The notes beneath the pieces were generated by a model. That model ran no database searches. It was not told the DNA's origin and saw only the letters and a list, made by a program, of their open reading frames with translations. From contig JBDGRL010000012.1 in the NCBI GenBank assembly GCA_042218065.1, positions 4,244 to 68,243 on the forward strand: a stretch of DNA of 64,000 bases, written 5' to 3'. Source of the stretch: Candidatus Magasanikiibacteriota bacterium (GTDB taxonomy: Bacteria; Patescibacteriota; Patescibacteriia; Magasanikbacterales; UBA922). Positions 20,886-45,001 of this stretch are shown in pieces (within the stretch, counting starts at the first letter, position 1; every line of letters begins with the position of its first letter). Made by a program: the position numbers and the translations under genes.

Positions 20886-21233
20886 ATGTTTTATCAGAAA
20901 CTAATAGGTAGATTTTTTTTCAGTTTTGTTTATACACCTTTCTGGTGGTATACAAGAGGTCTTGTCAGAGCTTTTTATTTTTGCAAAAGATTATTAAAAA
21001 TTGGAAATAAAAACTTAGTACCGATGCTTTGGTTGAGGAATATTTTTGTCCCTATGTTTGGTCAAAGAGATTGGCAGGGCAGAATTGTTAGTTTTTTTAT
21101 GCGGCTAGCGAATGTTTTTGGTAGGAGCTTAGCTTTATTTTTGTGGTTTATAATCGTATCTCTTGTATTTTTTGTATGGGTATCTTTGCCTGTCTTTGTT
21201 TTGACTATGCTTTTATTTTCTTTATTTAATTGA
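20886..21233 (+). CDS. small hypothetical membrane protein (2-3 TM)
   Basis: 115 aa. It overlaps the start of the downstream ClpC-like gene by 4 nt. Confidence 0.4.
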   Translation: MFYQKLIGRFFFSFVYTPFWWYTRGLVRAFYFCKRLLKIGNKNLVPMLWLRNIFVPMFGQRDWQGRIVSFFMRLANVFGRSLALFLWFIIVSLVFFVWVSLPVFVLTMLLFSLFN

Positions 21234-23917
21234 AGGTTATGGATTTTTCAGAGACAGAAAAATTACCACTTCAGAGGCAAGATGGACAGGTGTACTTTCA
21301 GGAGGGTAAGAATGCTTGGTATTTCGGCCAGAAATTAGATCATAATGAGATTCAATATCGTAGGTATAAGGGTTTAGTAGATAAATTACAGATCGGTTTA
21401 TTGACATTGTTTGCTTTATTTTGCTTCGTTTTATTTTATTTGTTTTTACCAGAATCTTCTTTATTATTCTCTTTTAAGTTTTGGTTGAACCCCGATCCTC
21501 TTCTGGCTTGGTTTTGGTTGGGGGTATTAAGTATTTTATATGTTTGGGCTAGAGTTCTGATTTTAAACCATAAGGACTTAAAGGTATTTGATTACCAGGA
21601 GAAAGATTTTAAGCAGAAAAATCCCTCTGGATCTGATTTATCAAAATCTGGAGCTGAAAATTTATCTAAAAAGAGCAATAAAGATTTAACTAAATATTTC
21701 ACAAAAGACTGTAGGAAAATTATAGATAGAGCTTATAGACTAGCTGATAAGAATAATATAAAAGAGGTAAGTCCAGAAGTTATTTTTTATTCACTTTTAT
21801 TTAATGAAAGAATTTCTAGTATTTTTGTAAGATTGAATTTACCAGTAGATCAGATTAAAGAGAAGTTTTCTGAAATTATTTCGGGAAGTACTCAATTAGA
21901 ACCTAAACTAAAAGACGGTTTTTATCAGACAATTTTTCTTGCATATAAGATAGCACGAAAAGAGAAACAAGAACATATTGATGTTACAGAACTTATCTTA
22001 GCTACAGTGCAAAATTCAAATCAGCTTCAAGAATTTCTTTATGATTTAAAAGTAGATATGGAAAAGTTACAGAAAGTAGTAGAATGGGTTCGTATTAGAT
22101 CTAGATTAAGAAAAAGGTATAGAAGGAGACAAAAAGAGGCTGCTTACAGAAGTGAAGCAGGTATTGATAGAGCAATGACCTCAGTAGCTACCCCTTATTT
22201 AAACAAATTTAGCCAAGATCTTACATTTTTGGCTCAGAAATCTCAACTAGAATCCTGTGTGGCTAGAAAAAAAGAGATTGATGAGATCTTTCGAGTAATA
22301 GAAACAGGAAGACAAAGTGTATTGTTAACTGGAGAAATAGGTGTTGGGAAAAGCACTTTAGTTAATGGTATAGCTCAAAGAATGATAGGCAAAAATATTC
22401 CTAAAGAGTTGGAAGAAAAAAGGCTGGTAAAGCTTTCAATTTCTAAATTACTAGCGGGTACTAGTGTAAGCGGTGCTCAACAAAGGTTAATAAATATAAT
22501 GCAAGAAGTAGCAAAAGCCGGGAATGTCGTGCTATTTATAGATGGCATAGATAAATTGATGGGAGCTCAGACGGATAAAGGTTCCAGTTTAGATGTAGCA
22601 GGAACTTTGGCTGAATACCTAAGTTCTGGTAGATTTTTGACTATCGCAGTTACCACAAATAAAGGGTACAATAGACAGATAGTCAACACTCAGCTGGATA
22701 CGATTTTCTCTCGGGTAAACATAGAAGAGATGGATTTGGACCAAACTATAAAGGTTTTGGAGTCGAAAGCAGGCCTAATTGAACACCAACAAAATATATT
22801 TTTCTCTTATAAGGGACTTGAGCAGTCTGCGGAATTAGCAGAAAAATTTATTCAGCAAAAAAATCTACCAGAGAGTGCTATTGAAATAATGACTCAAGCA
22901 GCTAGCTATAGTAGAAGCCAGAAAGGTGAGAAGTCTTTGGTACTAGAAGAAGATGTATCAGAGGTGGTGAGTGATAAGACCGGCATTCCTACTACTTCGT
23001 TGACGGAAGAGGAGTCAGAGAAACTAATGAAACTGGAAGAAAAAATGCATGAAAGAATTATTGGTCAAGATGAGGCGGTGGAAATGGTATCAAACGCGCT
23101 TCGTAGAGCCAGGACAGAGGTTCGATCTGAGGACAAGCCAATCTCTACTTTTCTCTTCTTGGGACCAACCGGGGTGGGTAAGACTGAGCTAGCAAAAACA
23201 ATTTCTTCGACTTATTTTGGTGGAGAAGAGAAAATGATCCGCATAGATATGAGTGAATACCAAGACAAACAATCTGTTTATAGATTAATAGGTCAACCTA
23301 ATGAGCAAGGTACCGGCCTTCTTACTCAGCAAGTCCGCGAAAATCCATTTTCGTTGTTGTTGTTAGATGAGTTGGAAAAATCAAGTCAGGATGTACAAAA
23401 TCTATTCTTACAAGCCTTTGATGACGGGAAGTTGACTGATAGCGTAGGTAGAGAGGTTGATTTTACCAACACCATCATTATTGCTACCTCTAATGCAGGT
23501 ACTGAGTATGTGCAGAAAGAACTAGAAAAAGGAAAAGAACTAGAAGATATAAAAGAAAAACTCATACGAGGAAAGCTGCAAGAATATTATCCCCCTGAGT
23601 TTTTAAACAGATTTGATGGAATAGTGCTGTTTAAATCTTTGAAAAAAGAAGAAGTAAAGCAAATTGCTGATCTGATGCTGGAGCGAGTACGAGAAGATAT
23701 GGAAGATAAGGGTATAAAACTAGAAATTACCGAAGGTGCACTTGAGTCTCTAGTAGAAGAAGGCTATGACCCTCAGTTTGGAGCTAGACCGATGCAGAGA
23801 GCTATTCAGGATAATATAGAAAATAAACTAGCAGAACTAGTACTAGAGGATGATTTAGATCGTAGAGATGAGGTAACTATTAAAAAAGATTTTGAGGTAG
23901 ATGTAAAAAGAAAATAA
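21230..23917 (+). CDS. ClpA/ClpC-like double AAA+ ATPase with N-terminal transmembrane anchor
   Basis: 895 aa. Two TM helices in the first about 110 aa, a Clp-N-like segment, D1 Walker A GEIGVGKST, D2 Walker A GPTGVGKTELAK, and a sensor region. Confidence 0.7.
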   Translation: MKVMDFSETEKLPLQRQDGQVYFQEGKNAWYFGQKLDHNEIQYRRYKGLVDKLQIGLLTLFALFCFVLFYLFLPESSLLFSFKFWLNPDPLLAWFWLGVLSILYVWARVLILNHKDLKVFDYQEKDFKQKNPSGSDLSKSGAENLSKKSNKDLTKYFTKDCRKIIDRAYRLADKNNIKEVSPEVIFYSLLFNERISSIFVRLNLPVDQIKEKFSEIISGSTQLEPKLKDGFYQTIFLAYKIARKEKQEHIDVTELILATVQNSNQLQEFLYDLKVDMEKLQKVVEWVRIRSRLRKRYRRRQKEAAYRSEAGIDRAMTSVATPYLNKFSQDLTFLAQKSQLESCVARKKEIDEIFRVIETGRQSVLLTGEIGVGKSTLVNGIAQRMIGKNIPKELEEKRLVKLSISKLLAGTSVSGAQQRLINIMQEVAKAGNVVLFIDGIDKLMGAQTDKGSSLDVAGTLAEYLSSGRFLTIAVTTNKGYNRQIVNTQLDTIFSRVNIEEMDLDQTIKVLESKAGLIEHQQNIFFSYKGLEQSAELAEKFIQQKNLPESAIEIMTQAASYSRSQKGEKSLVLEEDVSEVVSDKTGIPTTSLTEEESEKLMKLEEKMHERIIGQDEAVEMVSNALRRARTEVRSEDKPISTFLFLGPTGVGKTELAKTISSTYFGGEEKMIRIDMSEYQDKQSVYRLIGQPNEQGTGLLTQQVRENPFSLLLLDELEKSSQDVQNLFLQAFDDGKLTDSVGREVDFTNTIIIATSNAGTEYVQKELEKGKELEDIKEKLIRGKLQEYYPPEFLNRFDGIVLFKSLKKEEVKQIADLMLERVREDMEDKGIKLEITEGALESLVEEGYDPQFGARPMQRAIQDNIENKLAELVLEDDLDRRDEVTIKKDFEVDVKRK

Positions 23918-23933
23918 TTTCATAAATAAAAAT

Positions 23934-23955
23934 AGCCCAGGATTAATTCTGGGCT
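23934..23955 (-). terminator. hairpin AGCCCAG-8nt-CTGGGCT, T-tract on minus strand
   Basis: 7-bp stem. The reverse-strand reading is followed by ATTTTTATTT. Confidence 0.5.
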
Positions 23956-24007
23956 GTAAATGGAGATTTTTACTATCACCACTTACCACAAACCTTCCTC
24001 GACAGCT

Positions 24008-24044
24008 GGCTTGTCGATGCCGCCCCCCTTTTTTATCTCTGGTT
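24008..24044 (+). terminator. hairpin TCGACA-gctggct-TGTCGA followed by GC-rich spacer and T7 run (probable terminator of ClpC-like gene)
   Basis: 6-bp stem in a short GC-rich patch, then TTTTTTT at 24038-24044. This explains the spurious small reverse ORF 23983..24093. Confidence 0.45.
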
Positions 24045-24251
24045 CAGATTCACCACCATTTTTCTTTTTAAATTCTTTTTCTGTTTTTATCATTATATTT
24101 GTCCAATGATTATAATTTGAGCTATCTTTAATTCGACAATTGCATTTTAAAAATAGTATAAAAATTGTAAAATAAAAGTACCCAGCAGCTTTAGCCACTG
24201 GGTGTGGTGTGACCGTGCCCGTAGAGTCGGCGGGGGTAGGTCGGAATACCC

Positions 24252-24617
24252 TCAATCCTTGAGGTAGACGTCGACGATGATCGGTGGATTTTTGTCATCG
24301 TTGACTACGGTGATTTCGGCTCGGAACCGCTCGTCTTCGAGAGCGAGTTTGTTGAGATCCGTTTCGACCACTTCTTTCATTTCGGCGAGAGCTTCCTCTA
24401 GTGAACTGTAACTTTTATTTGTGGACCATTTCAACCTTTGATTGTAAATCTGTGCGTGTCCCTGCAACCGGGCGCAGTTTGCCGTGTTGGCGATCAGCTG
24501 CCCGTATTGTGAACTGAAATTGTGCGGTACGCACGAATTCGTTGCAAGCACTGTCGGCTTCTTTTTCAGAGCGAGTGTTTGGGCGATCTGGAGCTGTCCT
24601 TGGTCTTCGAACGACAT
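24252..24617 (-). CDS. hypothetical 121-aa protein encoded in an anomalously GC-rich block (foreign-looking)
   Basis: Reverse-strand ATG (plus-strand 24615-24617) is preceded by GAGGT 5 nt upstream. The translation is MSFEDQGQLQIAQTLALKKK...IIVDVYLKD. Local GC is about 50% against about 33% background, with many G/C-ending codons. The ORF track's longer 24252..24686 extends into the AT-rich promoter. Confidence 0.5.
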   Translation of the reverse strand: MSFEDQGQLQIAQTLALKKKPTVLATNSCVPHNFSSQYGQLIANTANCARLQGHAQIYNQRLKWSTNKSYSSLEEALAEMKEVVETDLNKLALEDERFRAEITVVNDDKNPPIIVDVYLKD

Positions 24618-24684
24618 GGTGTACCTCGATTGCTTTGGGAGCGAAAAGAGCGAAACAATTCCCCAGCAACGGGAAATCAAGTGC

Positions 24685-24711
24685 AACTTATCATATATAT
24701 ATTGATGTCAA
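24685..24711 (-). promoter_or_regulatory. putative promoter for the GC-rich-block gene (TTGACA - 15 nt - TAAGTT on minus strand)
   Basis: The reverse complement of 24706-24711 is TTGACA and of 24685-24690 is TAAGTT. The spacer is suboptimal at 15 nt. Confidence 0.3.
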
Positions 24712-24715
24712 GTAA

Positions 24716-25780
24716 ATGACTTTATTTTTTTACTTTTTAACAACTTTTCTGCTAAGTTTAGTTATAACTTGGGCAATTAAACTATATATGAAACAGCAGG
24801 AGATAGTAGACAAAGCCAAAAGCATACAAAGAAAGATACACGATGAGGATAAGCCACTAGGTGGCGGGGCAGCTATTTATTTATCTTTTTTTATACCAAC
24901 AGCTATAGCTTTTTATTTATCGGATATCGGAACCACTATAAATGGTGGCTATTTATTAGCTATAGCTACCAGTGGAGCAATAATTGTTTTAGGTGGGTTA
25001 TTGGATGATATTTATAATCTTAAATACTATTGGCAGTTTATAGCACCCGTGCTGGCTGTGGTCATAATTATTTTTTTTGGTATAGGACCAGAAGTTATTA
25101 CAAACCCGTTCGGAGGAGTTTTTCGTTTGAATAACTTAGTTTTGAGCTTCGGATCCGTTAAATGGGTATTGCTGAGTGATATTATAGTGTTTTTTTGGTT
25201 GATGGGTATGATGTTTACCACTAAACTTTTGGACGGGCTGGACGGATTGGTAGCAGGTTTGGTGGCTATTGGCGGCTTGATGATTTTCTTTTTATCGCTT
25301 CAGCCACAATGGTATCAACCCGAGATGTCGGTTATATCAATCATTTTCGCTGCTAGTTGTCTTGGTTTTTTGTTCTGGAATTGGCATCCAGCAAGTATAT
25401 TCTTGGGGGAGTCTGGCAGTCTGTTGGTTGGATTTATATTAGGTACTTTAGCTATCATATCGGGGGGTAAAATAGCGACTGCATTGTTGGTGATGGGGAT
25501 TCCCATTTTGGATGTTGTCAGGGTTGTGTTTATGCGTGTCAAAAAGGGTAAGTCTGTTTTTAGGGGTGATAAAGAGCATTTACATTTCAGGCTGATAAGT
25601 AATGGGTTGAATCAAAGACAAGCTGTACTTTTATTTTACGCGATATCTTTTTTGTTTGGTATAACTACTTTATTTTTGCAGAGTAAACAGAAACTGATTG
25701 CTTTGCTGTTTTTAGCTGTTTTGATGCTGTTAGTTGGTATATGGTTTTTAAAGCAAGATTCTAATAATACAAGTACTTAA
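24716..25780 (+). CDS. glycosyltransferase family 4 polyprenyl-phosphate HexNAc-1-phosphate transferase (MraY/WecA family)
   Basis: 354 aa with about 10 TM segments and a ..KLLDGLDGLVAGL.. motif (the DGLDGL signature of MraY/WecA). Confidence 0.7.
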   Translation: MTLFFYFLTTFLLSLVITWAIKLYMKQQEIVDKAKSIQRKIHDEDKPLGGGAAIYLSFFIPTAIAFYLSDIGTTINGGYLLAIATSGAIIVLGGLLDDIYNLKYYWQFIAPVLAVVIIIFFGIGPEVITNPFGGVFRLNNLVLSFGSVKWVLLSDIIVFFWLMGMMFTTKLLDGLDGLVAGLVAIGGLMIFFLSLQPQWYQPEMSVISIIFAASCLGFLFWNWHPASIFLGESGSLLVGFILGTLAIISGGKIATALLVMGIPILDVVRVVFMRVKKGKSVFRGDKEHLHFRLISNGLNQRQAVLLFYAISFLFGITTLFLQSKQKLIALLFLAVLMLLVGIWFLKQDSNNTST

Positions 25781-25789
25781 TATTTTTTT

Positions 25790-26245
25790 ATGAAATTCCG
25801 GTTTAAATACTTATTTGTAGCTGTTTTTTTGGTTTCTGCTGTATTTTTGTATTTCACTTATGATGATTTTGACACAGCTCGGATTAAACTTGGTGGCGAG
25901 CAATTAAGAGTTTTGGTGGCAGAAACTAGATATCAAAAATATAAGGGTTTAGGTGGCAGGAGAGGGTTAGATGAGTATGATGGTATGTTATTTAAGTATT
26001 TTCCTCCAAGAAAAGTCGGGATTGTAATGCGGGATATGAAATTTCCTATTGATATAGTCTGGTTGAATGATGGTAAAGTAGTGGATATAGCTCCAAATGT
26101 TCAACCTCAACCAGATACTACAGAGGAAAAGCTTAAAGTGTATCGTCCTAGAAAAAAGGCTAATTTAGTAGTAGAGCTACCTGCTGGTTGGAGTAAAAAA
26201 CATAGTTTAGAAATAGGAAATAAAATTAAAATTTTAAAACAGTGA
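25790..26245 (+). CDS. DUF192 (COG1430) family protein with N-terminal signal/TM
   Basis: 151 aa. ..GLGGRRGLDEYDGMLFKYFPPR...FPIDIVWLNDGKVVDI.. matches the DUF192 pattern. Confidence 0.6.
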   Translation: MKFRFKYLFVAVFLVSAVFLYFTYDDFDTARIKLGGEQLRVLVAETRYQKYKGLGGRRGLDEYDGMLFKYFPPRKVGIVMRDMKFPIDIVWLNDGKVVDIAPNVQPQPDTTEEKLKVYRPRKKANLVVELPAGWSKKHSLEIGNKIKILKQ

Positions 26246-26258
26246 TTTAAAATAAAAA

Positions 26259-26283
26259 AAGGCTATTCCCCCCAAATAGCCTT
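26259..26283 (-). terminator. hairpin AAGGCTATT-ccccccA-AATAGCCTT with T-run on minus strand (terminator for 26292..27143 gene, possibly bidirectional)
   Basis: 9-bp perfect stem. An A8 run precedes it on the plus strand, which is a T8 run for the minus-strand transcript. Confidence 0.65.
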
Positions 26284-26291
26284 ATTGTCCT

Positions 26292-27143
26292 TCATTTGGT
26301 TTTAATCTTCGGAATTTGTGCAAAGCTTAAGTTTATTTTCAAAGTGCTAAGTTCGACTTTATGATTTAGTCTCTCTATAGGTAGGCTCATCAAAGAAAAC
26401 GCAGCTCTCTTTAGTTCGGGGTACTGGTTTGTCAACACTTGTAAATAAATGATGGCAGATGTCATTTTCTTACATTCTTTCCATCTCTTTACTTCCGGAC
26501 CATTAATCATTTCTTTCGGTATATGGTATTTTTTCGCTTTTTCCAACAGTTTTTGGAGGCTTTTAACATACTCGATTCCAGCCTGTATTCTTTTTTGCTG
26601 TTCGGATAGGAGTTCTTTTATTTCTTTCTCTTTTTTCTCTATTCTTCTAACAGCTTCTTCAATTTCTGGGTCTTCACTATTAATTTTGGATATTTTCTGA
26701 TTTACTTTGTTCAGTTCCTTCTTAAGTTTATTTTTATCCTTCTTCAAACTTTTTCGAAAACCTTTCATCAAATCCATATAATCCTGAAGCTTGCTTTTGA
26801 TCATACTTTCGTGTTCTTCCATGTATTTCTGAACCCACTTGTTACCTTTAGAGCAGATCTTTAGTACTTGTTCTTTTTTTATGCTTTTGCAAGTAGGTGC
26901 TTTACTACTGGTTAACAAGTCGAACCCTTCTTCAGTGATTTTGTTGAGATACTTTCTTGATTTGCTCTTACTGCTCGTTTTTTTGAGGACTTTTTTAGCC
27001 TTACCAATGTTCCAAAAGAATGCCTGCAACTGAGCGCTCTTTTCACAACTCCATTTGTTGTTTTTTTCTGCGAAAGCTTGACAGCAGAAAATAGTGATCA
27101 TAGAAAAGATGGCAACACCGATCGTGTAAGCACTTCTTTTCAT
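26292..27143 (-). CDS. hypothetical secreted Lys-rich coiled-coil protein
   Basis: 283 aa with an N-terminal signal peptide (MKRSAYTIGVAIFSMITIFCCQAFA), long K/E-rich helical regions and several Cys. Confidence 0.5.
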   Translation of the reverse strand: MKRSAYTIGVAIFSMITIFCCQAFAEKNNKWSCEKSAQLQAFFWNIGKAKKVLKKTSSKSKSRKYLNKITEEGFDLLTSSKAPTCKSIKKEQVLKICSKGNKWVQKYMEEHESMIKSKLQDYMDLMKGFRKSLKKDKNKLKKELNKVNQKISKINSEDPEIEEAVRRIEKKEKEIKELLSEQQKRIQAGIEYVKSLQKLLEKAKKYHIPKEMINGPEVKRWKECKKMTSAIIYLQVLTNQYPELKRAAFSLMSLPIERLNHKVELSTLKINLSFAQIPKIKTK

Positions 27144-27400
27144 TGTTACCTCCTGAAGCTGTGCTTGGAAGGAGCGAACTTTAGCTCAAGCCTTATAATA
27201 TAAGAAAACTTTAATTTTGTCAATGTAGATACACTAAACTTAAAAATTCGTATTTGTAGAATATAAGACCGTTGTTAACTTAGAGCGTTTAACCTATCTC
27301 TCGATTTAGCATACTTGTCTGAATAGTGAATTTCAAAAGTATTCCAAATCTGCTTAAAGCATTCTTTCAGTGGTTCTTATCTCTGAAAATACTTGCATTC

Positions 27401-27429
27401 TTGACAGAAAGACAAATTTTAGATAAAAT
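27401..27429 (+). promoter_or_regulatory. sigma70-type promoter of rplU (TTGACA - 17 nt - TAAAAT)
   Basis: TTGACA at 27401-27406 and TAAAAT at 27424-27429, about 30 nt before the rplU ATG. Confidence 0.5.
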
Positions 27430-27457
27430 ACTTGCGCTGAAAATAAGTAAAATAAAT

Positions 27458-27766
27458 ATGTTTGCAGTAATAGAAACAGGAGGGAAACAATACCAAGTCC
27501 AGGAAGGCGATAAAATAAAAGTAGAAAAATTAGAAGCAGATGAGGGTGAGGAAGTAGAGTTTGATCAAGTGTTGTTAATGTCTGATGAAGAAGGGGAAGA
27601 AACCGAGATCGGAACTCCTTATTTAGAAGAAACTGTGACTGCTGAAGTCACAGAACAAGATCGTCACGATAAAGTTGAGGTAGTAAAATTTAAACGAAAG
27701 AATAGATATAAGAAAACTTACGGACACAAGCAGCCTTACACTGAAGTTAAGATTAAGTCCTTGTAG
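27458..27766 (+). CDS. rplU: 50S ribosomal protein L21 (bL21)
   Basis: MFAVIETGGKQYQVQEGDKIKVEKL is the conserved L21 N-terminus. The track ORF 27326..27766 carries an unlikely 44-aa N-terminal extension. No rpmA follows. Confidence 0.85.
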   Translation: MFAVIETGGKQYQVQEGDKIKVEKLEADEGEEVEFDQVLLMSDEEGEETEIGTPYLEETVTAEVTEQDRHDKVEVVKFKRKNRYKKTYGHKQPYTEVKIKSL

Positions 27767-27814
27767 TTAGAGTTGACTTTTAGGTAGTCTGATTTGCCTA
27801 CTTTCCAAAAAGTG

Positions 27815-28429
27815 TTAACCTTCCTTATTTTTTTTAATTCTATTTTTTAAAGCACTTCCTAAAGTTACCTCATCAGCATATTGTAAGCTGCTGCCCATAG
27901 GTAAGCCCCGAGCTAATCTGGAGATAGTAATATCGGGGTTTATTTTTTTTATCTTCTTTTCTATGTACATCATAGTAGTTTCACCGCTCATATCATGGTT
28001 TAAAGCTAAAATAACTTCTTCTACATCTTGGTTTTTAATTCTCTTTAACAATTCTTTTACTTTTAGGTACTTTATATTCTCCTCTTTGTCAGATTCAATT
28101 GTGCCTCGTAGAATGTGGTAGACACCCTGGAAATCTTCTACTTTTTCTATTGCTTGTTTTTGTTGAGGCTGGGCTACTACACAGATAGTAGATTTATCTC
28201 TATTGGAGTTTTTACAAACTTTACAAGGAGATTGATCAGAGAAGTCCCAGCAAACTTCGCAACTTTCTATTTCTTTTAGCAGCTCTTTTAAAGCTACTGC
28301 AAGTTCACCGGCTTCTTTTTTTCCTGATTTTAAGATATGAAAGATATACCTTTCGGCGGTTTTATTACCTACTCCAGGTAAATTCTTAAAAGACTCTTTT
28401 AATTTTTTGATTGGTTCAGGATAAGCCAT
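27815..28429 (-). CDS. recR: recombination protein RecR
   Basis: 204 aa with HhH NLPGVGNKTAERYIFHIL, a C4 zinc finger (CEVC...CKVC) and a Toprim domain. Confidence 0.9.
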   Translation of the reverse strand: MAYPEPIKKLKESFKNLPGVGNKTAERYIFHILKSGKKEAGELAVALKELLKEIESCEVCWDFSDQSPCKVCKNSNRDKSTICVVAQPQQKQAIEKVEDFQGVYHILRGTIESDKEENIKYLKVKELLKRIKNQDVEEVILALNHDMSGETTMMYIEKKIKKINPDITISRLARGLPMGSSLQYADEVTLGSALKNRIKKNKEG

Positions 28430-28531
28430 ATTTGTGAAAATCCCCGCATTTTTTGCGGGGATAGTATTTATTCATGAATTTTTGAGATAATTTTTAGCTG
28501 TTAGTAAATATTTTGAGAAGAAAATTACTTT

Positions 28532-28840
28532 TTACATTCCAGGAATATCAGGCATCCCACCCATATCTTTCATTTGCTTGGCCATTTTTTTCTGCATTTT
28601 CTTGCTAGCCTTATCATGAGCCTTTTTAATGTATTTTTCTAGTGCACCCTTGTTACTTGGGTCTAGTAAATCTTCGTCTATATCTATATCTACAATATCC
28701 ATATTTCCATTCATCGTAATTTCCACGTTTCCACCTGTTAAGCCTCCTTTAGAAACAGTAATTTCTTCATCCTCTAGTTCACTTTGCATTTCTTTAGCCT
28801 TATCGCGAGCTTCTTTGAATTGTTTTAGTTTGTTGAACAT
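28532..28840 (-). CDS. ybaB: YbaB/EbfC family nucleoid-associated protein
   Basis: 102 aa. MFNKLKQFKEARDKAKEMQSELEDEEITVSKGGLTGGNVEITMNGNMDIVDIDIDEDL is a typical YbaB. The recR-ybaB adjacency is conserved. Confidence 0.85.
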   Translation of the reverse strand: MFNKLKQFKEARDKAKEMQSELEDEEITVSKGGLTGGNVEITMNGNMDIVDIDIDEDLLDPSNKGALEKYIKKAHDKASKKMQKKMAKQMKDMGGMPDIPGM

Positions 28841-28898
28841 AAAATTAAATTATTTATAAACCTCTATTTATTATATCTAATTCTAGCTTATTTTTCAA

Positions 28899-30335
28899 TT
28901 AAACAGGAATATCTTCCTCTTTTACCGGTTCTTGCTGTGATTCTTCAGGAATTTGCTCTTCGTCGTGTGTAGTATCTAAGGATTTGAAGCTAGCAATAGA
29001 CTCATCAAAGAATGTTTTTACCATGCCGGTCGGTCCATTTCTATGTTTTGCTATATGAACTTGAGCTAAGTTTCTTTCGTCCGGGGGAATATCTTCGATT
29101 CGGTAGTTTCTATCGGCAGCTTTTCTATAGATAAACATAACTACATCGGCATCTTGTTCAATGCTACCAGAATCTCTCAAGTGGGATAGCTTAGGGATAG
29201 CTGGTTTATTTTTTTCTACAGCTCGAGACAACTGGGACAAAGCTAATACAGGTACATCTACTTCACGAGCTAGAGCTTTTAGGTTTCTGCTCATCTGGGA
29301 GACTTCTTGAACTCTGTTTCTAGACCCTGATTTTTTATGTGGCTCCATTAATTGCAGGTAGTCTACGATAATCATACCTAGATTATGTTCTGCCTTTAGT
29401 CTTCTGGCTTTAGTTCTTATCTCCATTGCTGTACTTCCAGCAGTATCGTCGATATATATAGGGGCTTCAGATAGTATACCCATAGCATTTCCTATTTTAG
29501 AAAAATCATTACTTTCTGGTTTATCAGATAAATTCCCGGTTCTTAGCTTCCATAGATTTACCTCAGCTTGAGCGCATAATAGTCTATCTACTAGTTGTTC
29601 TTTGCTCATTTCTAGAGAAAACATTCCCACAGGTACATCAGCTTCTACAGCAGCATGTCGAGCAAAATCAAGCGCTAGCGAGGTTTTACCTACTGATGGT
29701 CTAGCGGCTAGGATGATTAAATCTGAACTTTGGAAGCCGGCTAAAATATTGTCGATCTTTTCAAATCCGGTAGGTATACCTCTAAGCTCACCTTTATTAT
29801 CATGTAAGTCGTCTATCCTTTCAAAAGCTTGGTCTAGGACAGACCTAATGTCTGTAAAGTCTTCTTGCAAGTGTCTTTTTCCAACTGAAAAAACTCTTTC
29901 TTGAGCTACATCTAATAATTCATCCAAATCTTGTGATTCTTCATCGTAACTAAGCTTAGAAATTTCGTGTGCAGCCTCAAGCAGCTCTCTAATGATAGAT
30001 TTCTTTTGAACTATATTAGCGTACTCTTCGATATGTGCTGCGGTAGGTACTGAGTTTGATAGTTCAGCCAAATAGCTTTTTCCTCCAATATTTTCAAGTT
30101 TATCCACCTCTTCTAATCTGTTACTAAGGGTGAGCACATCGATCTGCTCGTTGTTGGAATAGAGATCCATCATTGCTTCATAAATTTGCTGATGTTTAAG
30201 TTTGTAGAAATCATTAGCTTCCATTTCATCAGCAATTTTAAACACTGCATCCTCTTCGATAAGGATTGAGCCAAGTAAGCTTTTTTCAGCCTCTATATTG
30301 TGTGGAGGAACTTTTTCTAATTCTTCTTCTGGCAT
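28899..30335 (-). CDS. dnaB: replicative DNA helicase DnaB
   Basis: 478 aa with an N-terminal DnaB domain (PHNIEAEKSLLGSIL), Walker A AARPSVGKTSLALD and a RecA-like C-terminal domain. Confidence 0.93.
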   Translation of the reverse strand: MPEEELEKVPPHNIEAEKSLLGSILIEEDAVFKIADEMEANDFYKLKHQQIYEAMMDLYSNNEQIDVLTLSNRLEEVDKLENIGGKSYLAELSNSVPTAAHIEEYANIVQKKSIIRELLEAAHEISKLSYDEESQDLDELLDVAQERVFSVGKRHLQEDFTDIRSVLDQAFERIDDLHDNKGELRGIPTGFEKIDNILAGFQSSDLIILAARPSVGKTSLALDFARHAAVEADVPVGMFSLEMSKEQLVDRLLCAQAEVNLWKLRTGNLSDKPESNDFSKIGNAMGILSEAPIYIDDTAGSTAMEIRTKARRLKAEHNLGMIIVDYLQLMEPHKKSGSRNRVQEVSQMSRNLKALAREVDVPVLALSQLSRAVEKNKPAIPKLSHLRDSGSIEQDADVVMFIYRKAADRNYRIEDIPPDERNLAQVHIAKHRNGPTGMVKTFFDESIASFKSLDTTHDEEQIPEESQQEPVKEEDIPV

Positions 30336-30459
30336 GAAATTTATTTATAGTTCTATCTTATATTAATTTGCTATTTTAATCAACAATTTGACATTCATTG
30401 TATTATTATATTTAATTAAATCAAGTAGAAGCCAGTCGACCTTTACAACGGAGGTAGTC

Positions 30460-31500
30460 ATGAAGATCTCAACAGAAGAAAAAGGAGAGTTTTTAGAAAT
30501 AAAGCATTACCGTCTAGTAAATAAGGGCTGGGAAGTATTTGTTGCTATTTACAATACTGTTTATAATCCAGTTCTAGATTTAGAAACTTCATTGGGTGGA
30601 GCTCGCATAAGAGATTATGAAAATTCTAAAGATGCTCTTAGGGATGTGAAGAGGTTAGCAAAAGGTATGGCATATAAGAATGCTATTCATAATTGTAACT
30701 TTGGGGGAGCTAAGGCAGTCATCAATGCTAATCCAGAGGATAAATCAGAGAGATTGTTCCTGGAATTTGGACAAATCGTAGAAGACTTGGGTGGTATGTA
30801 TATCACTGCTGAAGATATTGGAACCACTGTGGAGGATATGAAGGTTGTTAATCGTAAAACAGAACATGTCTGTGGGCTTGCAGGTGATCCATCGCCGGTT
30901 ACTGCTCAAGGAGTTATTTACGGATTGAAAGCTTGTTTGGATAATAAATATGAAGATGCTTCTTTGGAAGGATTAGAGACCTTGATTCAAGGTGTTGGTA
31001 AAGTTGGTTCTGTTTTAGCAGAAAAACTTGACGAGAAAGGAGCCATAGTTAAGATTTCCGATGTTGATAACAAAAAAATAGAACGAGTGCGTGAAGAGGT
31101 CCCTTCCGTGGAGGTTGTCGATCTTGATAAGGTGTTTGGAACGAAATTTGATATATTTATCCCCTGTGCTGTTGGGGGTGTAATTAATGACAGAACGATC
31201 GATAAACTTAACTGTGATATTGTTGCAGGTGCTGCCAATAATCCTCTGCAAGATCAAAAACGCCATGCTGAAGAATTAAGACAAAAAGATATTCTTTATG
31301 CTCCTGATTACGTTATCAATGGTGGGGGCTTGATAGCGGTTGTAAAGGAGCTTCAGAGCCAGAGTGGCATAGAAGCTGCTATGGAAGAAGTAAAAGAAAT
31401 CAGGCCCAGGCTGGAGCGTGTTTTTGAAATATCTGAAAGAAGAGGTATCCCTACACAAAAAGCTGCAGATAAGTTAGCAGAAAAGAAGGGGGGATTATAA
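30460..31500 (+). CDS. Leu/Phe/Val-type amino-acid dehydrogenase (Glu/Leu/Phe/Val dehydrogenase family)
   Basis: The ATG at 30460 is preceded by GGAGGT. About 346 aa with a GGAK motif (NFGGAKAVI) and a Rossmann fold GVGKVGS. The size fits LeuDH/ValDH rather than GDH. The track ORF starts at an upstream in-frame codon. Confidence 0.7.
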   Translation: MKISTEEKGEFLEIKHYRLVNKGWEVFVAIYNTVYNPVLDLETSLGGARIRDYENSKDALRDVKRLAKGMAYKNAIHNCNFGGAKAVINANPEDKSERLFLEFGQIVEDLGGMYITAEDIGTTVEDMKVVNRKTEHVCGLAGDPSPVTAQGVIYGLKACLDNKYEDASLEGLETLIQGVGKVGSVLAEKLDEKGAIVKISDVDNKKIERVREEVPSVEVVDLDKVFGTKFDIFIPCAVGGVINDRTIDKLNCDIVAGAANNPLQDQKRHAEELRQKDILYAPDYVINGGGLIAVVKELQSQSGIEAAMEEVKEIRPRLERVFEISERRGIPTQKAADKLAEKKGGL

Positions 31501-31515
31501 TAATTTTCATATTTA

Positions 31516-31549
31516 AGCCTGTTCGGCAAGGCCGGACAGGCTTTATTTA
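31516..31549 (+). terminator. strong rho-independent terminator (12-bp stem AGCCTGTTCGGC/GCCGGACAGGCT with one G-U, then TTATTTATT)
   Basis: Long stem with a 3-nt loop and a T-rich tail, immediately after the dehydrogenase stop. Confidence 0.7.
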
Positions 31550-31587
31550 TTGCAAAATAATAAAGTATTTCTTATATTACACCTAAT

Positions 31588-33193
31588 TATGAAAATTTGC
31601 TTTATCCACAATTTATATAAGCCATTTTCTAGAGGTGGAGCAGAGGGATTTGTAGAGAATAAGGCTAAAACATTAAAATCTGAAGGCAAGGAGCCCGTTA
31701 TTATTACAACTAAGCCATGGAGCGGTTGGGGCTGTTGGGATCCGGAAATACAAAAAGAGGATGGGGTTAAAATTTATAGGTTCTGGGTACCAAATTTATG
31801 TTGGTATGGTGACTTAAATAAATATGGAGTTATTTTTAAACTGTTCTGGCATTTTTTTGATATCTTTAATATCTTTAGCGCCTTTATAATCAAGAAAATA
31901 ATAAGAAAAGAAGAGCCAAAAATAGTAAATACTCATAATTTGACCGGAATTGGTTTTTTGCTGCCACGAGTTATAAATCATTTGGATACTATTTTTGTTC
32001 ATACTTTACATGATGTTCAGTTAGTGGAGCCGAGTGGTATATTACACTGGGATCATAAACAAGATAATCTTTTTCAGAAAATATATTCTGGTTTGATGAA
32101 GAATTTATTCGGTTCTCCAGATAAGGTAAACTCTCCTTCTTATTTTCTTAAAGATTTCCATCGAGATAGGGGTTTTTTTAAAGATAGTGAGTGGCAAGTA
32201 AAAGAGTTTGCTCTAAAAAAGAGAAGGAACATAAAACCAAAAAATATAAGTTACTCTCGTATAATTAAATTTTTGTTTGCTGGATCTTTAGAACCACATA
32301 AAGGACTAGGTTCATTAATGAAATCTTGGGATGATTATATTTCGGCAGGGAAAGAGCTTCATATAGCGGGGGATGGTTCAATGAAAGAAAAAATCAGGGA
32401 GTGGTCCAATTATCGCCAAGGAGTAAAAATGTATGGTAGAGTTTCAAAGCAGAAGCTTGATAAGATTTATAATGAGTCTGATGTACTTATTTTTCCTTCA
32501 GTTTGTATAGAAAATAGCCCGGAAGTTATAAAAGAAGCTCTGAATCGTGATTTGTTTGTAGTAGCAGCAGCCACTGGTGGGGTTGTAGAATTTAAAGATT
32601 ACAATGTTTGGTTGTTTGAACCTGGAAATATAGATGAAATGAAGCAAAAGATAGCTGAGGTTAGTGTTAAGGTGCTAATCAAAAGAGGTTTGAGTACCGA
32701 GAAGGAGGATCAGGATATTTTTGAGATTAGATGGGCTAAATATTTCGTTGATTATATAAATGAGAAATTGAACCGAGATTATAGCGTGGAAAATAATAAG
32801 GACCAAAACTCTGATATAGATGTATTTGCGGTATCCAAAAACGAAGATTTTGATACTTTGAATTTGCAATTAACTCAAGTGCATCCTGAGTTTTTTTATG
32901 AAAAAGCTGGGGGTAGATTTGAATTTAAGGATAATTTAGAGAATGAGGAAGATAAAATAGAGATTATGAAAATAAAATATCTGCTTGAAGATGCTATTGA
33001 AAGGAAAAAGAAGGAGTATGCAAAGACTGAAGATATTATACTACTACTTCAGGGTTATTTTCAGGTTAATAAGGTTAAGAGAGCAATAGATTACATGAAT
33101 AAAAAATTTATACAAGATAATAATTTTTCAGGTATATATTATGTATTTCCGGGAATTAACCGAGGTGGTGTTGAGGAGATTAAGGCAATTTAG
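31588..33193 (+). CDS. glycosyltransferase family 4 (GT-B) with C-terminal extension
   Basis: MKICFIHNLYKPFSRGGAEGFVEN is a GT4 N-terminal motif, followed by GT-B C-domain features and about 150 extra C-terminal residues. I prefer the ATG at 31588 over the track start 31550, which abuts the terminator. Confidence 0.6.
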
Positions 33194-33207
33194 TAAAAAA
33201 ACTCTTT

Positions 33208-35325
33208 TTATTTTTTATACTCAAAAACCCAAACTTTATTTTCAAAATTCCAGAACCTGTCTGCATACTTTTTTGCTTCATCTCTGATCTTGGCTGCCGG
33301 ATACCAGTAATCTGTATGAACAAAATATGCTTTATCTGTACCAGCAAAGTTCATAGCCTGTTTCATCCATTTTCTTTTCGGCTTTTTGTAAACCATTTTA
33401 CTAAAGAATTTTTTGTACAAAGCTCCTCCTGTTGGTATTGAGTAAAAATAGTGTTTAGATCCGTTTTTTAGTTTAATATACTTAGCAAACCCAAATTTCT
33501 TTAGAGCCGCTGCTCCTATCATTTGGTTGGTAATGACTATGTAATCTTTCTTGTTGTTAATTTTATCTATAAATTCTACTGCTTTTAGGTCTGCAGTTCT
33601 TACGTTATATCCTGTATATTTGGATACTGCGTCTCTGGTCGGGTAAGTAAAATATAGGGATAGAGCTAATATTGCAGCAGAAACTAGCGAAATAACTACT
33701 TTTTTTTGGTTCTTATTTATTCTTTTGCTTGCATAGTTTAGAATTTTCTCTATTGAGATGATTAATCCTGGGGTTAGAGTTAGTAGAGACAAATCCAGTA
33801 ACCTTTGAGCAAAAACTGTTTCTTCATAGGAGATTATCTTTGAGAAATTCATGCTAGTGGCTAACAAGAAACTAGAGCAGAACAACCCTACAGCAGTAGA
33901 TAAATAAAATTTAGATTTTTTGTCTTTTACAAAAATAAAGCCAGTTATTGCTAAAAAAACTAACAAATACTTCCAAAAATAAACCTTAATATAATATACA
34001 GCCTGCCAATACCACTCAGCTCCACCAAATAGGTACCAATGAGGTTTATCAAATATATTTAAAAAAGATTGATATTGGTAGAGTGGATTGGTTACCTGAC
34101 CGGAATTAGTGAATAAAATGTACAAGGCCATGATTAAGGGTAGACTTAAAATGATAGCAGAAATATATAGGAGCCAACTGATTCTATTTTTAAAAGAAGT
34201 GTATCTGAAAAATAAAGACCCAAAATAAAAAACAGAGGTGGGAATTCCTATAAAGGGGTGGACAGCTAAAGTTGTTAAAGTTAGGATTATACCAAACAAG
34301 TGGTATCCTATTTTTTCTTTACCCCACTCAAACCAGGTCCAAAACAATAGTATTACTGAAAATAATAATGCAAGATTGTTGGGTGTGGTAACTATGAATT
34401 GATTGAGAAGCAAGACTGGCAGTAGGGCTACACTTACAGTTGTAAGCTTCTTATTTTGTTTTTGCATGCAGAAAAATACAGTAAAAGGGATCAAAATAGT
34501 AGCCGCTACAGGCACCAAAGCTGAATCTACAAGGTGTATTGAAATATTAGTGGCAAAATGGGCAAATAATACTAGCATGTATTGTCCTATATAGAAGGGT
34601 CTTTTAGGGGTTATATAGCCATTTTCAGCTATCCATTTTTCTGTGGCTTGATGGATAAATGGATCAAAGCCGAATCCATGTTTATACAGGATTAAAGCAA
34701 TTAGGAAGAAAATTCCAAAATGAAATATAAGTAGTATATAACTCGATATCCTTTCTTTATAGATTTGTAGAAAATATAAAAGTAGGGAAGTGGTAAAAAA
34801 GAATAATATAAAGAACCTCCAGGTCAAAGGTATCCATGGGGATATTATGGTGTCTCCACTTCTATGAAGAAAGAGTAACACAAACAAACCTGCGTACCCT
34901 ACAGTAATCAGTAAAAAAAATAATAATTTTTTGTAGTTTAAATTTTTAATTGGATTTCGTAAGAATTTAGGTTTTTTTAATTTTATAGTAGTGTTAAGAT
35001 AAGCTATCAATGCAGTCAATACTATGATTGAAGCGGAAACTATTACTTTGTTTATTTGAAAAAACCAGTAAATACCTGATAGAATAATGGTTAAGATGCC
35101 ATATATAGCTACTACTCCAAAAATAGTCCTTGAGACTATATCTAAATCTGATAGTAAGTATTTTCCGGAAGTATACCCTATAGATAGTGAAAATAGAAAA
35201 AAGATTATCAGTCCAATAATTTCAGGAAAATTAAACCAAACGGAAAGTAGGATTCCTAGAGACAATATAACCGTGGTAATATTAAGTGTAGTAGTATTAA
35301 ATTTTGTAAGACTTTTTTTATTCAT
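33208..35325 (-). CDS. large polytopic membrane protein (about 14 TM + C-terminal soluble domain), GT-C-like architecture, function unknown
   Basis: 705 aa and extremely hydrophobic, with a soluble region of about 200 aa at the C-terminus. No motif securely recognised. Confidence 0.4.
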   Translation of the reverse strand: MNKKSLTKFNTTTLNITTVILSLGILLSVWFNFPEIIGLIIFFLFSLSIGYTSGKYLLSDLDIVSRTIFGVVAIYGILTIILSGIYWFFQINKVIVSASIIVLTALIAYLNTTIKLKKPKFLRNPIKNLNYKKLLFFLLITVGYAGLFVLLFLHRSGDTIISPWIPLTWRFFILFFFTTSLLLYFLQIYKERISSYILLIFHFGIFFLIALILYKHGFGFDPFIHQATEKWIAENGYITPKRPFYIGQYMLVLFAHFATNISIHLVDSALVPVAATILIPFTVFFCMQKQNKKLTTVSVALLPVLLLNQFIVTTPNNLALLFSVILLFWTWFEWGKEKIGYHLFGIILTLTTLAVHPFIGIPTSVFYFGSLFFRYTSFKNRISWLLYISAIILSLPLIMALYILFTNSGQVTNPLYQYQSFLNIFDKPHWYLFGGAEWYWQAVYYIKVYFWKYLLVFLAITGFIFVKDKKSKFYLSTAVGLFCSSFLLATSMNFSKIISYEETVFAQRLLDLSLLTLTPGLIISIEKILNYASKRINKNQKKVVISLVSAAILALSLYFTYPTRDAVSKYTGYNVRTADLKAVEFIDKINNKKDYIVITNQMIGAAALKKFGFAKYIKLKNGSKHYFYSIPTGGALYKKFFSKMVYKKPKRKWMKQAMNFAGTDKAYFVHTDYWYPAAKIRDEAKKYADRFWNFENKVWVFEYKK

Positions 35326-35345
35326 ATAGTCCTCATTTTAGCATA

Positions 35346-35972
35346 ATGCAAGAAATATCCAACCGCCTTTCTGAAGAAAAAACAGACCTGTTCGAGTTCT
35401 TACAATCTGACAAAGTTCATCCTCATGATAAGCTTTTAGATAAGACTTTCTTAAGGCTTATACCATCTTTCATAACACCTAATTTTCTAACAACTGTAAG
35501 GGTTTTCTTGACCCCTGTAGTATTTTTTTTGATCTCTAGTCAGTATTATAATGTAGGGATTATCTTATTTCTGCTAGCAGCTTTTACTGATGCTATGGAT
35601 GGATCATTAGCAAGAACAAGAGATCAAATCACTAAATTTGGAATGATGTTTGACCCTTTAGCTGATAAGCTTTTGATAGGTTCATTAGTTATTCTGATAG
35701 TTTTTGATATATATAACTTTTGGTTAGCTATGGCTGTTTTGGGTCTAGAGATCGTTTTTATAGTTGTAGCTACAGTAGGTAAAGTAAAGTTTAAAACGAC
35801 AAGAATGGCAAATATCTGGGGGAAAATTAAAATGATATTACAAGTGATAGCTGTATTTGTGACTTTAGCCGGACTTCTACTTCATGCTCCTGAGTTTTTT
35901 ACTTTTGGGGCATGGATTTTTGGTTTAGCCATAGGTTTTGCTATAGTTAGCCTATTTGCTCATGGAATATGA
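35346..35972 (+). CDS. CDP-alcohol phosphatidyltransferase family protein
   Basis: 208 aa. DAMDGSLARTRDQITKFGMMFDPLADK matches the D-G-x2-A-R-x8-G-x3-D-x3-D signature. Confidence 0.8.
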   Translation: MQEISNRLSEEKTDLFEFLQSDKVHPHDKLLDKTFLRLIPSFITPNFLTTVRVFLTPVVFFLISSQYYNVGIILFLLAAFTDAMDGSLARTRDQITKFGMMFDPLADKLLIGSLVILIVFDIYNFWLAMAVLGLEIVFIVVATVGKVKFKTTRMANIWGKIKMILQVIAVFVTLAGLLLHAPEFFTFGAWIFGLAIGFAIVSLFAHGI

Positions 35973-41740: not shown

Positions 41741-42476
41741 TACACATCAACCTAAAAGTTACGATGAATTCGATAAACGCGAATGGTGGAATGAAGCTGA
41801 AAAAGAAATATTTAAAAAAGTTACCGCCGAAAAATTACCGGAATCTGTTCCAGATGCTGTAGTCTGGATCGAAGGGGATGCAAGGGATAGAGTAGATAAG
41901 ACTATGGAAGTATTGGAATATTATAACCATAAACCAAAGCTAATTTTATCCGGTGGGCTAGAAGGAAACCCATATCGACCAGACTCTGATTTGCGACCCG
42001 ACGGTGGAAATATCCCTTCCTGGGAGATAAAAGAAGAATTCCTCGAGCGAGGAGTAGATAAGGAAAATATAATTTTAGAAGATGAATCTCGCAACGGTTT
42101 AGAGCAAGCAATCAATGATGTCGAGATTGCAAAGAAACGAGACTATGACAGCTTAGTCTTGGTTGCTTCAACTTGGCATCAGCCGAGGTTATTTTTGACT
42201 TTTGTCAATCAGCTACATGAACAAGATGCTTTGGATATTGAGCTGATTAACCAACCGGAGACCAGCTATCCACTAGATAGAAAAATTCCTGGCCGAGGAA
42301 AAGATACATTGGAGATGCTACAAGAGGATCTCTGGAAAATAACTGAATACAATGAAAATGGAACTGTTGCTAAAGCTGAAGTTGAGCTGGAGTATTTGGA
42401 AAGGTTTGAGAAAGAGTATGAAGAAGTCAGTGAAAAGATTGAAGAAATTGTCGAAGAAATTGAGTTAAAAAAGTAG
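41733..42476 (+). CDS. YdcF/ElyC-like DUF218 family protein
   Basis: 247 aa. ..LILSGG...EDESRNGLEQA...LVLVASTWHQPR.. resembles the DUF218 core (E-S-R-N-T-x-E-N pattern). Confidence 0.45.
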   Translation: MTNTHQPKSYDEFDKREWWNEAEKEIFKKVTAEKLPESVPDAVVWIEGDARDRVDKTMEVLEYYNHKPKLILSGGLEGNPYRPDSDLRPDGGNIPSWEIKEEFLERGVDKENIILEDESRNGLEQAINDVEIAKKRDYDSLVLVASTWHQPRLFLTFVNQLHEQDALDIELINQPETSYPLDRKIPGRGKDTLEMLQEDLWKITEYNENGTVAKAEVELEYLERFEKEYEEVSEKIEEIVEEIELKK

Positions 42477-42477
42477 T

Positions 42478-44010: not shown

Positions 44011-44176
44011 AAATATTACGACTAAATCGAAACAACTGCAGGCATAGCTAGCTGGATTTTTTTAATTTAGCTAGGTGTGCCTGCCTCGCTGAGGAGGACA
44101 CCCGCCAAAACTTCCCGCTGGGAATAAGTGGCGTCGTTATAGTCCGTAAACCTTTCCGCGAATGCGGAGGTTTGTG

Positions 44177-44791: not shown

Positions 44792-44938
44792 TTGAACACC
44801 AACACCCCGAGTCGCGAACCCACGGACTTCACGGCCCGTGCTGAAGCGGCTCGGGGTTGAGCCCCAGGAAAGGTAAGCCTGAGAATGGCGGAGCCGAATT
44901 TCCGAGAGGAGGGAGCCTAGCGTGTTAACGTGAGGCTA

Positions 44939-44963
44939 GCAGGTTCGAATCCTGCCCGGGGCA
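44939..44963 (+). other. tRNA/tmRNA-like 3' fragment: T-stem-loop GCAGG-TTCGAAT-CCTGC plus acceptor 3' strand CCGGGGC and discriminator A; no complete cloverleaf found
   Basis: Canonical GGTTCGAATCC T-loop context followed by a 7-nt acceptor strand and then TTTT. I could not find a complementary 5' acceptor strand, D arm or anticodon arm upstream. Confidence 0.45.
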
Positions 44964-45001
44964 TTTTGCACGATTGTTCGATCTTTGTAGAATTTGGGGG
45001 A

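Follow-up and report, generated by a model that had tools for sequence, protein, structure and literature searches.

A GC-rich island, probably acquired horizontally and carrying a single orphan gene, in the clpC-wecA spacer of a Magasanikbacteria genome

In the metagenome-assembled genome (MAG) of a Candidatus Magasanikiibacteriota bacterium, the spacer between a ClpC/ClpB-type AAA+ chaperone gene (clpC) and a WecA/MraY-family glycosyl-phosphate transferase gene (wecA) contains a GC-rich island, which we consider likely to be a small piece of horizontally acquired DNA that was fixed at this site and carries one real protein-coding gene. The window analyzed here is a stretch of 64,000 nucleotides (nt) from contig JBDGRL010000012.1 (assembly GCA_042218065.1, positions 4,244 to 68,243), and all coordinates given below are those of the window. 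An earlier note, made from the DNA letters alone, had described the island as a reverse-oriented unit of foreign composition that consists of one gene equipped with a ribosome-binding site (RBS) and a terminator, and our analysis supports this description. The two flanking genes that it named are also confirmed, with clpC upstream (21230-23917) and wecA, a member of the Glycos_transf_4 family, downstream (24716-25780), both on the plus strand. The spacer between them measures 798 bp, and its portion outside the GC-rich tract (23918-24179) is AT-rich.

The compositionally foreign core of the insert is a tract of 505 nt (24180-24684) with 51.7% GC. That the stretch bearing the open reading frame (ORF) is far richer in GC than its flanks, as originally remarked, is borne out by comparison with the host: positions 24205-24660 contain 50.9% GC versus a host mean of 36.0 +/- 4.1% (z = 3.6), where the reference consists of 134 non-overlapping 456-nt segments outside both GC-rich islands of the window and has a maximum of 46.5%. 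Only the second island (approximately 44040-44965, 54-63% GC) exceeds this tract in GC content. The dinucleotide signature of the tract deviates likewise, with a distance (delta*) to the host of 0.255 as compared to 0.115 +/- 0.040 for host segments. At the codon level, the relative synonymous codon usage (RSCU) of the ORF within the tract correlates negatively with that of the host (-0.40), whereas host genes cut into pieces of 121 codons yield +0.57 (range 0.23-0.85), and its GC content at third codon positions (GC3) is 0.60 versus approximately 0.28 in the host.

This reading frame, hereafter ORF121 (24252-24617, minus strand, including the TGA stop; NCBI ABEJ24_01365, on a contig of 70.5 kb), encodes 121 amino acids (aa) and was found exactly as the earlier note had quoted it. 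Its ATG lies at 24617-24615 and its TGA at 24254-24252, and extension of the frame to a TTG start would give 144 aa. The GC contents of its first, second, and third codon positions are 0.55, 0.34, and 0.60, respectively, and the three-base periodicity is strong (phase chi-square p = 3.7e-5). As in clpC, purines prevail at position 1, and position 2 has much A and little G, whereas position 3 shows frequencies of 0.35 for C and 0.26 for G, compared to 0.09 and 0.20 in the host clpC gene. Because the first two positions are host-like and only the silent third position is shifted toward G and C, the pattern is that expected of a protein-coding gene that evolved under a different mutational bias. 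An ATG-initiated ORF of at least 121 aa arises in 2.3% of 5000 dinucleotide-preserving shuffles of the tract (P = 0.023). ORF121 occupies 366 of the 505 nt, the remainder being leader and terminator. In line with the original reading as a single gene, codon phase and ORF length thus mark the unit as coding rather than as a structured RNA, and we conclude that ORF121 is very probably a real protein-coding gene and not a chance ORF. The proposal that the gene is a mosaic, or partially ameliorated, is not supported: an AT-rich dip exists in the middle of ORF121 (lowest 60-nt GC 0.33), where it coincides with a peptide rich in N, K, Y, and S, but it falls within the range of codon shuffling and is not significant (p = 0.09).

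ORF121 is accompanied by expression signals on its own strand. A Shine-Dalgarno (SD) sequence, GAGGT (24623-24627, minus strand), lies 5 nt before the ATG, as had been reported. Such a signal is rare in this genome: of the 35 host ORF starts sampled in the window, only 4 are preceded by an SD-like core, and most of the others follow plain A/T-rich sequence. The SD-bearing exceptions include a lineage-specific 283-aa minus-strand ORF (26292-27143, AGGAGG) and the ORFs of both GC-rich islands. Further upstream of ORF121, in an AT-rich strip abutting the wecA start codon, the hexamers TTGACA (24711->24706) and TAAGTT (24690->24685) are separated by 15 nt (24685-24711, minus strand). The earlier note had pointed to this pair, which is indeed present in the AT-rich flank and promoter-like but weak, since TAAGTT matches TATAAT at only three of six positions; a consensus promoter scan did not list it because of the 15-nt spacer and the poor -10 match.

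On the other side of the gene, a terminator scan identified an intrinsic terminator (24170-24203, minus strand) that begins 48 nt past the stop codon and consists of a 10-pair hairpin (24203->24180) and, directly after it, a T run (24179->24170; ACTTTTATTT). The hairpin and T run that had been noticed after the stop codon are therefore a terminator, and one that is specific to the minus strand: the RNA of this strand folds with -17.5 kcal/mol (z -3.0), as opposed to -13.0 kcal/mol (z -0.9) and no T run for the plus strand. From this arrangement we infer that ORF121 would be transcribed alone, on the minus strand, from the weak promoter in the AT-rich strip next to wecA, that its translation would start from its own SD site, and that the one-way hairpin would end the transcript ahead of the remaining spacer and clpC, which it would otherwise enter in antisense orientation.

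Comparison with relatives indicates that the long spacer is a derived state of this locus. We gathered 124 related loci from genomes and metagenomes with WecA as probe and found that the gene order orf115-clpC-wecA-orf151 is kept in relatives. Among the 52 unique relatives in which clpC adjoins wecA, 32 have a spacer shorter than 200 bp, and in several it measures only 1-2 bp, so that the two genes are presumably co-transcribed there. None of the 52 shows similarity to ORF121 or to the island DNA. The comparative check suggested by the earlier note thus came out in its favor, with the flanking genes nearly contiguous in most relatives and ORF121 in none of them, and because most spacers are short and nothing resembles ORF121 in any, the 798-bp spacer is the derived state. 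The closest relatives recovered in the genome and metagenome scans reach a WecA identity of 60% along the entire protein or, on a partial contig, of 67%; the collections contain no close relative of the MAG whose empty site would show the exact boundaries of the insert.

The same comparison identified the clpC-wecA spacer as an insertion hot spot. The spacer reaches at least 300 bp in 18 of 51 unique relatives, and nine of these 18 have a GC-rich core, defined as at least 12 GC points above the flanks in a spacer of at least 300 bp. Spacers of this length occur at the neighboring junctions in 4 of 42 (orf115-clpC) and 3 of 61 cases (wecA-orf151), and none of them has a GC-rich core (0/42 and 0/61, together 0/103, versus 9/51). 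The GC-rich inserts (0.4-1.2 kb; loci L003, L004, L010, L015, L017, L028, L049, L102, and L110) show no similarity to one another or to either island of the window in blastn and tblastx comparisons, which gave no sign of a conserved element common to them. It is this occurrence of unrelated GC-rich inserts in 9 of 51 relatives, against none at the neighboring junctions, that makes the spacer a hot spot. The clearest case is provided by two loci with approximately 80% identical DNA, L013 and L028, which differ by a clean 702-bp GC-rich presence/absence insertion in L028, located precisely between the terminator of clpC and the promoter of wecA and containing two minus-strand ORFs, each with a GGAGG-type SD site. 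Small minus-strand ORFs bearing SD sites are found in several of the relatives' GC-rich inserts. Among the insert ORFs scanned against Pfam, the only matches were a DUF559 endonuclease-like protein in the GC-rich insert of L010 and a VanW-like protein in a low-GC insert.

The spacer also has a low-GC occupant: in a subgroup of Magasanikbacteria it contains a conserved plus-strand gene of approximately 300 aa. The corresponding ORFs are closely similar in five loci (L006, L011, L020, L026, and L048; also L052 and L059), and the one in L006 is VanW-like according to Pfam (PF04294). Additional GC-rich segments are located approximately 2 kb downstream of wecA, in or near a variable region after a DUF192 gene (L001 8421-9060, L002 7971-8530, L007 7991-8960, and L029 8481-9590), and are mostly non-homologous to each other. 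This suggests that GC-rich islets may be a general feature of these genomes.

The product of ORF121 (121 aa, 13.6 kDa, isoelectric point (pI) 5.4, grand average of hydropathy -0.47) is an ORFan, that is, it has no credible homologue, as the sequence searches proposed by the earlier note made clear. In a word-indexed search of 5.8 billion clusters, it matched only itself. A full HMMER search against 1.84 billion representatives returned ORF121 itself and one 1625-aa repeat protein (P0002, E = 7.7e-11); this score is the sum of eight near-identical repeats that each match weakly (residues 20-66 of ORF121, at most 29 bits, 25-32% identity), and we treat it as a repeat-inflated chance match rather than as homology. 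An InlB B-repeat or Flg_new-type domain, which P0002 might have suggested, was likewise rejected, as there is no Pfam match and the structural model of ORF121 is helical, not beta. The Pfam scan of ORF121 gave no match at all; PHROGs, PADLOC, and NCBIfam profiles as well as PDB sequences yielded nothing meaningful, so that, in terms of PADLOC and PHROG profiles, ORF121 belongs to no known anti-phage defense or phage family. Tblastn and blastn searches of phage and plasmid collections returned nothing for ORF121 or the island, and scans of viral and metagenome contigs found no credible relative. The five other frames of the island, searched as a concatenate with X spacers, had no homologue either, and we therefore discarded the idea that the island is part of some foreign gene read in a different frame. 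A HicB-like "SLEEAL" motif was also considered but lacked profile support and was dropped. The literature contained no mention of the run SRR28304479, of the protein accession of ORF121, or of its locus tag.

The single-sequence AlphaFold2 model of ORF121 is all-helical, but the prediction is weak (predicted local distance difference test score 60.6), and a Foldseek search of the PDB with this model matched only generic or de novo helical bundles (E > 0.5). Inspection by eye revealed no N-terminal hydrophobic stretch or lipobox. By analogy, and as a tentative guess that is on balance more doubtful than convincing, the predicted helical, mildly acidic, and probably cytoplasmic protein might bind another protein and act as an accessory factor derived from a mobile element, with a role in immunity, anti-defense, or regulation, rather than as an enzyme.

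Other explanations of the tract have to be weighed against the acquisition of a real gene. In AT-rich genomes, RNA genes frequently stand out as GC-rich islands, and the tract could be a gene for a structured non-coding RNA (ncRNA) or, on the plus strand, an extended structured 5' leader of wecA; in either case its GC content would reflect folding. Plus-strand promoter-like sites upstream of the tract (24087-24116 and 24146-24173) would suit a leader, as would the lack of plus-strand T runs at the strongest hairpins of the spacer (23934-23955 and 24180-24203), with which a transcript from clpC or from the spacer could continue into wecA. We nevertheless regard this explanation as very unlikely. 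No Rfam family reached the gathering score in the whole window, and a search of the region at E <= 10 returned only noise; ARAGORN, in default and relaxed modes, found no credible tRNA or tmRNA in the island; the minimum free energies of the two strands (z -0.63 and -0.54) are no better than those of dinucleotide shuffles; and an RNA gene leaves the three-base periodicity and the open frame unexplained. The inserts that relatives have at the same site share no common sequence, and the GC-rich-insert loci L003, L004, L010, L015, L017, and L028 gave no Rfam match; a search at gathering score on nine relatives' loci found nothing, nor did a search at E <= 10 on both islands reveal anything credible. 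Thus, a known or unusual structured RNA was rejected as the source of the GC content on the basis of Rfam, ARAGORN, and the folding z-scores. The earlier note had coupled a lack of conservation of the ORF at any homologous locus with such an RNA as grounds against its own view; the lack of conservation is literally what we see, but the structured ncRNA does not explain the GC enrichment. For genome scans, the case may serve as a caution that high GC content in an island of an otherwise AT-rich genome need not indicate an RNA gene.

A harder alternative to dismiss, although still an unlikely one, is that the spacer tolerated a random foreign fragment, in which ORF121 is a by-product of high GC content or a decaying remnant and encodes no functional protein. 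None of the six frames of the fragment has a credible homologue, ORF121 was passed over by the gene caller that produced the Logan records, and the promoter is weak; long ORFs are commoner in GC-rich DNA, and 2.3% of the shuffles do reach 121 aa. Moreover, the same spacer elsewhere holds unrelated GC-rich pieces, some of which have several overlapping ORFs and no clear gene. Such captured junk would not be expected, however, to display strong codon-phase periodicity with host-like first and second positions in an ORF that fills most of the tract, an SD site at ideal spacing in a genome where these are rare, and a strand-matched terminator immediately after the stop. Conversely, orphan genes can arise natively, and with no identifiable donor ORF121 might be a fast-evolving or de novo lineage-specific gene of the host, or one whose GC content is imposed by its amino-acid sequence. 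This appears hardly probable at all, as the shift is mainly at the silent third position, codon usage is anticorrelated with that of the host, the dinucleotide signature deviates, an SD site is atypical for the host, and the ancestral spacer is short. Finally, a chimeric join or an assembly bubble could have placed DNA of a GC-richer organism in the contig. The source is a MAG, no other record contains a counterpart of the island, and the Logan contig that covers the second island ends at the right edge of that island, which hints at graph branching there. We hold an artefact to be exceedingly improbable, and the chimeric join that the earlier note had named as a possible refutation is unlikely: Logan contig SRR28304479_166432 (17.6 kb), assembled separately from run SRR28304479 although probably based on the reads that also gave the MAG, agrees with window 21350-36245 at 100% identity, the island and its two junctions included. 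The genes on either side are syntenic host genes, and the repeats at the junctions are only 7 nt long, too short to mislead a k-mer assembler. In addition, the signals at both ends cross the change in composition: GC-rich DNA holds the terminator stem and the RBS, and AT-rich DNA the T run and the promoter, an arrangement that a chimeric double join would not give.

Several observations nonetheless weigh against the acquisition of a real gene. Mobility genes, a tRNA, and a convincing target duplication are all missing from the island, and the sole candidate for the latter is an edge repeat that is exact over 7 nt and compatible with chance. The promoter match of ORF121 is weak (15-nt spacer and three of six matches in the -10 element), and the gene caller behind the Logan records left ORF121 uncalled. 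No frame has a credible homologue that could speak to conservation, dN/dS (the ratio of nonsynonymous to synonymous substitution rates), or donor identity, and the empty site is deduced from distant relatives only. The functional guess for ORF121, in turn, follows from analogy and not from data, since the structural model is of low confidence and the Foldseek matches are generic.

With respect to how horizontally acquired DNA may have entered the spacer, we searched for traces of integration. ARAGORN found no tRNA near the island, and the Pfam annotation of Logan contig L126 (window 21350-36245) contains no integrase, transposase, or recombinase domain. The GC-rich tract is bracketed by a 12-nt imperfect direct repeat, with a left copy at 24176-24187 (AAGTACCCAGCA) and a right copy at 24657-24668 (AATTCCCCAGCA; repeat family D7, no strand assigned). 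This repeat is exact over only 7 nt, and 7-nt seeds are expected by chance in the region; it may be a target duplication or a coincidence. Given that neither an integrase nor an att core is present, entry would probably have been by DNA uptake and illegitimate recombination. The donor would be an organism or a mobile element with a GC content of approximately 50% or higher that uses SD sites. In the recipient, the clpC-to-wecA read-through implied by the ancestral tight arrangement may persist, as the strongest hairpins of the spacer lack plus-strand T runs and the plus-strand terminator candidates are weak, comprising only two stems of 5-6 pairs inside the island and no hairpin backed by a T run between clpC and the island.

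A more far-reaching scenario would make the clpC-wecA spacer a dedicated, integrase-free capture site of Magasanikbacteria, at which these ultra-small bacteria, as scavengers of DNA, would repeatedly fix GC-rich cassettes of one or two genes from GC-richer neighbors or hosts. The orphan products, including that of ORF121, would then be a rapidly changing set of proteins serving interaction with hosts or defense against phages. The cassettes would carry SD sites, end in terminators, and mostly point against the flanking genes. The hot-spot counts (9/51 versus 0/103) and the contrast in SD usage are compatible with this scenario but demonstrate no mechanism, and we consider it decidedly unlikely. 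Taken by itself, the acquisition of ORF121 is an event of an ordinary kind, since orphan genes gained by horizontal transfer are common, and it is of limited interest alone. Its significance lies rather in the site, where unrelated GC-rich DNA has been acquired independently in approximately one sixth of the relatives, and never at the neighboring junctions. The spacer is therefore a convenient natural marker site for how the ultra-small Patescibacteria take up and fix foreign DNA. Furthermore, imported genes that carry SD sites in a largely SD-less genome prompt one to ask if they are translated there, and with what efficiency.

The island shares features with several known types of mobile or variable DNA. 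Its atypical composition and codon usage, its short gene without homologues, its absence from the syntenic site of relatives, and the variability of the spacer among them are reminiscent of the ORFan islets known from many bacteria, which occupy variable spacers that separate core genes. Classically, an ORFan is richer in AT than its host, whereas this island is GC-rich, its host being so AT-rich. It further differs from typical ORFan islets in consisting of a single 0.5-kb gene without a mobility gene, tRNA, or att site, and in carrying an SD site in a host that largely lacks them. Like integron cassettes, including integrase-less attC clusters and single attC sites, it comprises a single ORF of the mostly orphan kind with a hairpin right after the stop, differs in composition from the host, and occupies a position at which different strains have unrelated units. 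However, the annotated 15 kb around the island (L126, window 21350-36245) contain no integrase or attI, the hairpin is a plain terminator with a perfect stem and a T run, RYYYAAC/GTTRRRY cores were not seen by eye, and the unit has a promoter-like site and an RBS of its own. Units of the "moron" type, derived from phages or mobile elements, offer another parallel, as they also combine a promoter-like site, an RBS, one small ORF, and an intrinsic terminator with a composition that differs from the surroundings; unlike these, the island lies outside a prophage, has core-gene neighbors, and matches nothing among PHROGs, phages, or viral contigs. In Patescibacteria, genomic islands as well as genes transferred singly have been reported (PMC12455944).

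The AT-rich remainder of the spacer has features of its own. A second minus-strand terminator (23924-23955; hairpin 23955->23934 and T run) resembles that of ORF121 in its stem (CCCAG...CTGGG) and its A-rich flank, and the resemblance may reflect a duplicated terminator or a second mini-cassette. Between this terminator and a promoter-like site with 10 of 12 matches (24171->24144) sits an AT-rich 36-aa ORF (23983-24093, minus strand; MIKTEKEFKKKNGG...EEGLW; full sequence MIKTEKEFKKKNGGESEPEIKKGGGIDKPAVEEGLW), which was called as a gene on the Logan contig. We found no homologue of this putative gene in relatives. A 13-nt direct repeat with 12 of 13 matches (TTGAGGTAGATGT at 23892-23904 and TTGAGGTAGACGT at 24259-24271) joins the final codons of clpC to the antisense of those that end ORF121; with approximately 0.2 such repeats expected by chance, it is probably a coincidence.

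The second GC-rich island of the window contains a 204-aa ORF (44177-44791, plus strand, 61% GC) with GGAGGT 6 nt before its ATG and a very acidic product (pI 4.3) that matches only itself among 5.8 billion clusters. Because a codon-aligned 241-aa antisense ORF overlaps it, the assignment of its coding strand relies on the SD site and the G-rich first positions. The earlier note had suggested that the two islands could be parts of one acquired function, for which we find no support: they lie 20 kb apart with core genes between them (those annotated in the first 12 kb include RecR, DnaB, and ribosomal protein L21), resemble each other neither in DNA nor in protein sequence, are linked by no repeats, either with each other or elsewhere in the window, and differ in GC content (51% for the first versus 61% for the second) and GC3 (0.60 versus 0.72). 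The codon-usage comparison that had been proposed as a test for a common donor does give an RSCU correlation of +0.52 between the two ORFs, reflecting G/C endings, but the likelihood of each ORF under the codon table of the other is no better than uniform, and the correlation is therefore only a generic shared preference for such endings, which speaks neither for nor against a common donor. A haloarchaeal donor, which the acidic protein of the second island brought to mind, is without support, as this protein is also an orphan, and the literature held nothing specific on Magasanikbacteria in hypersaline sites.

The 3' part of the second island (44792-44968) is a GC-rich non-coding tail that ends in a perfect tRNA-like element, comprising a T arm and a 3' acceptor strand (GCAGGTTCGAATCCTGC CCGGGGCA, approximately 44938-44963). 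Default ARAGORN and Rfam searches reported no tRNA at 44792-44968, and ARAGORN with introns allowed proposed a dubious tRNA-Ser(GGA) with a 582-nt intron and several mismatches (44284-44963). Logan contig L125, which equals window 42027-44968 at 100%, stops 3-5 nt after the tRNA-like element, and the element itself may be the 3' fragment of a tRNA left by an integrative element.

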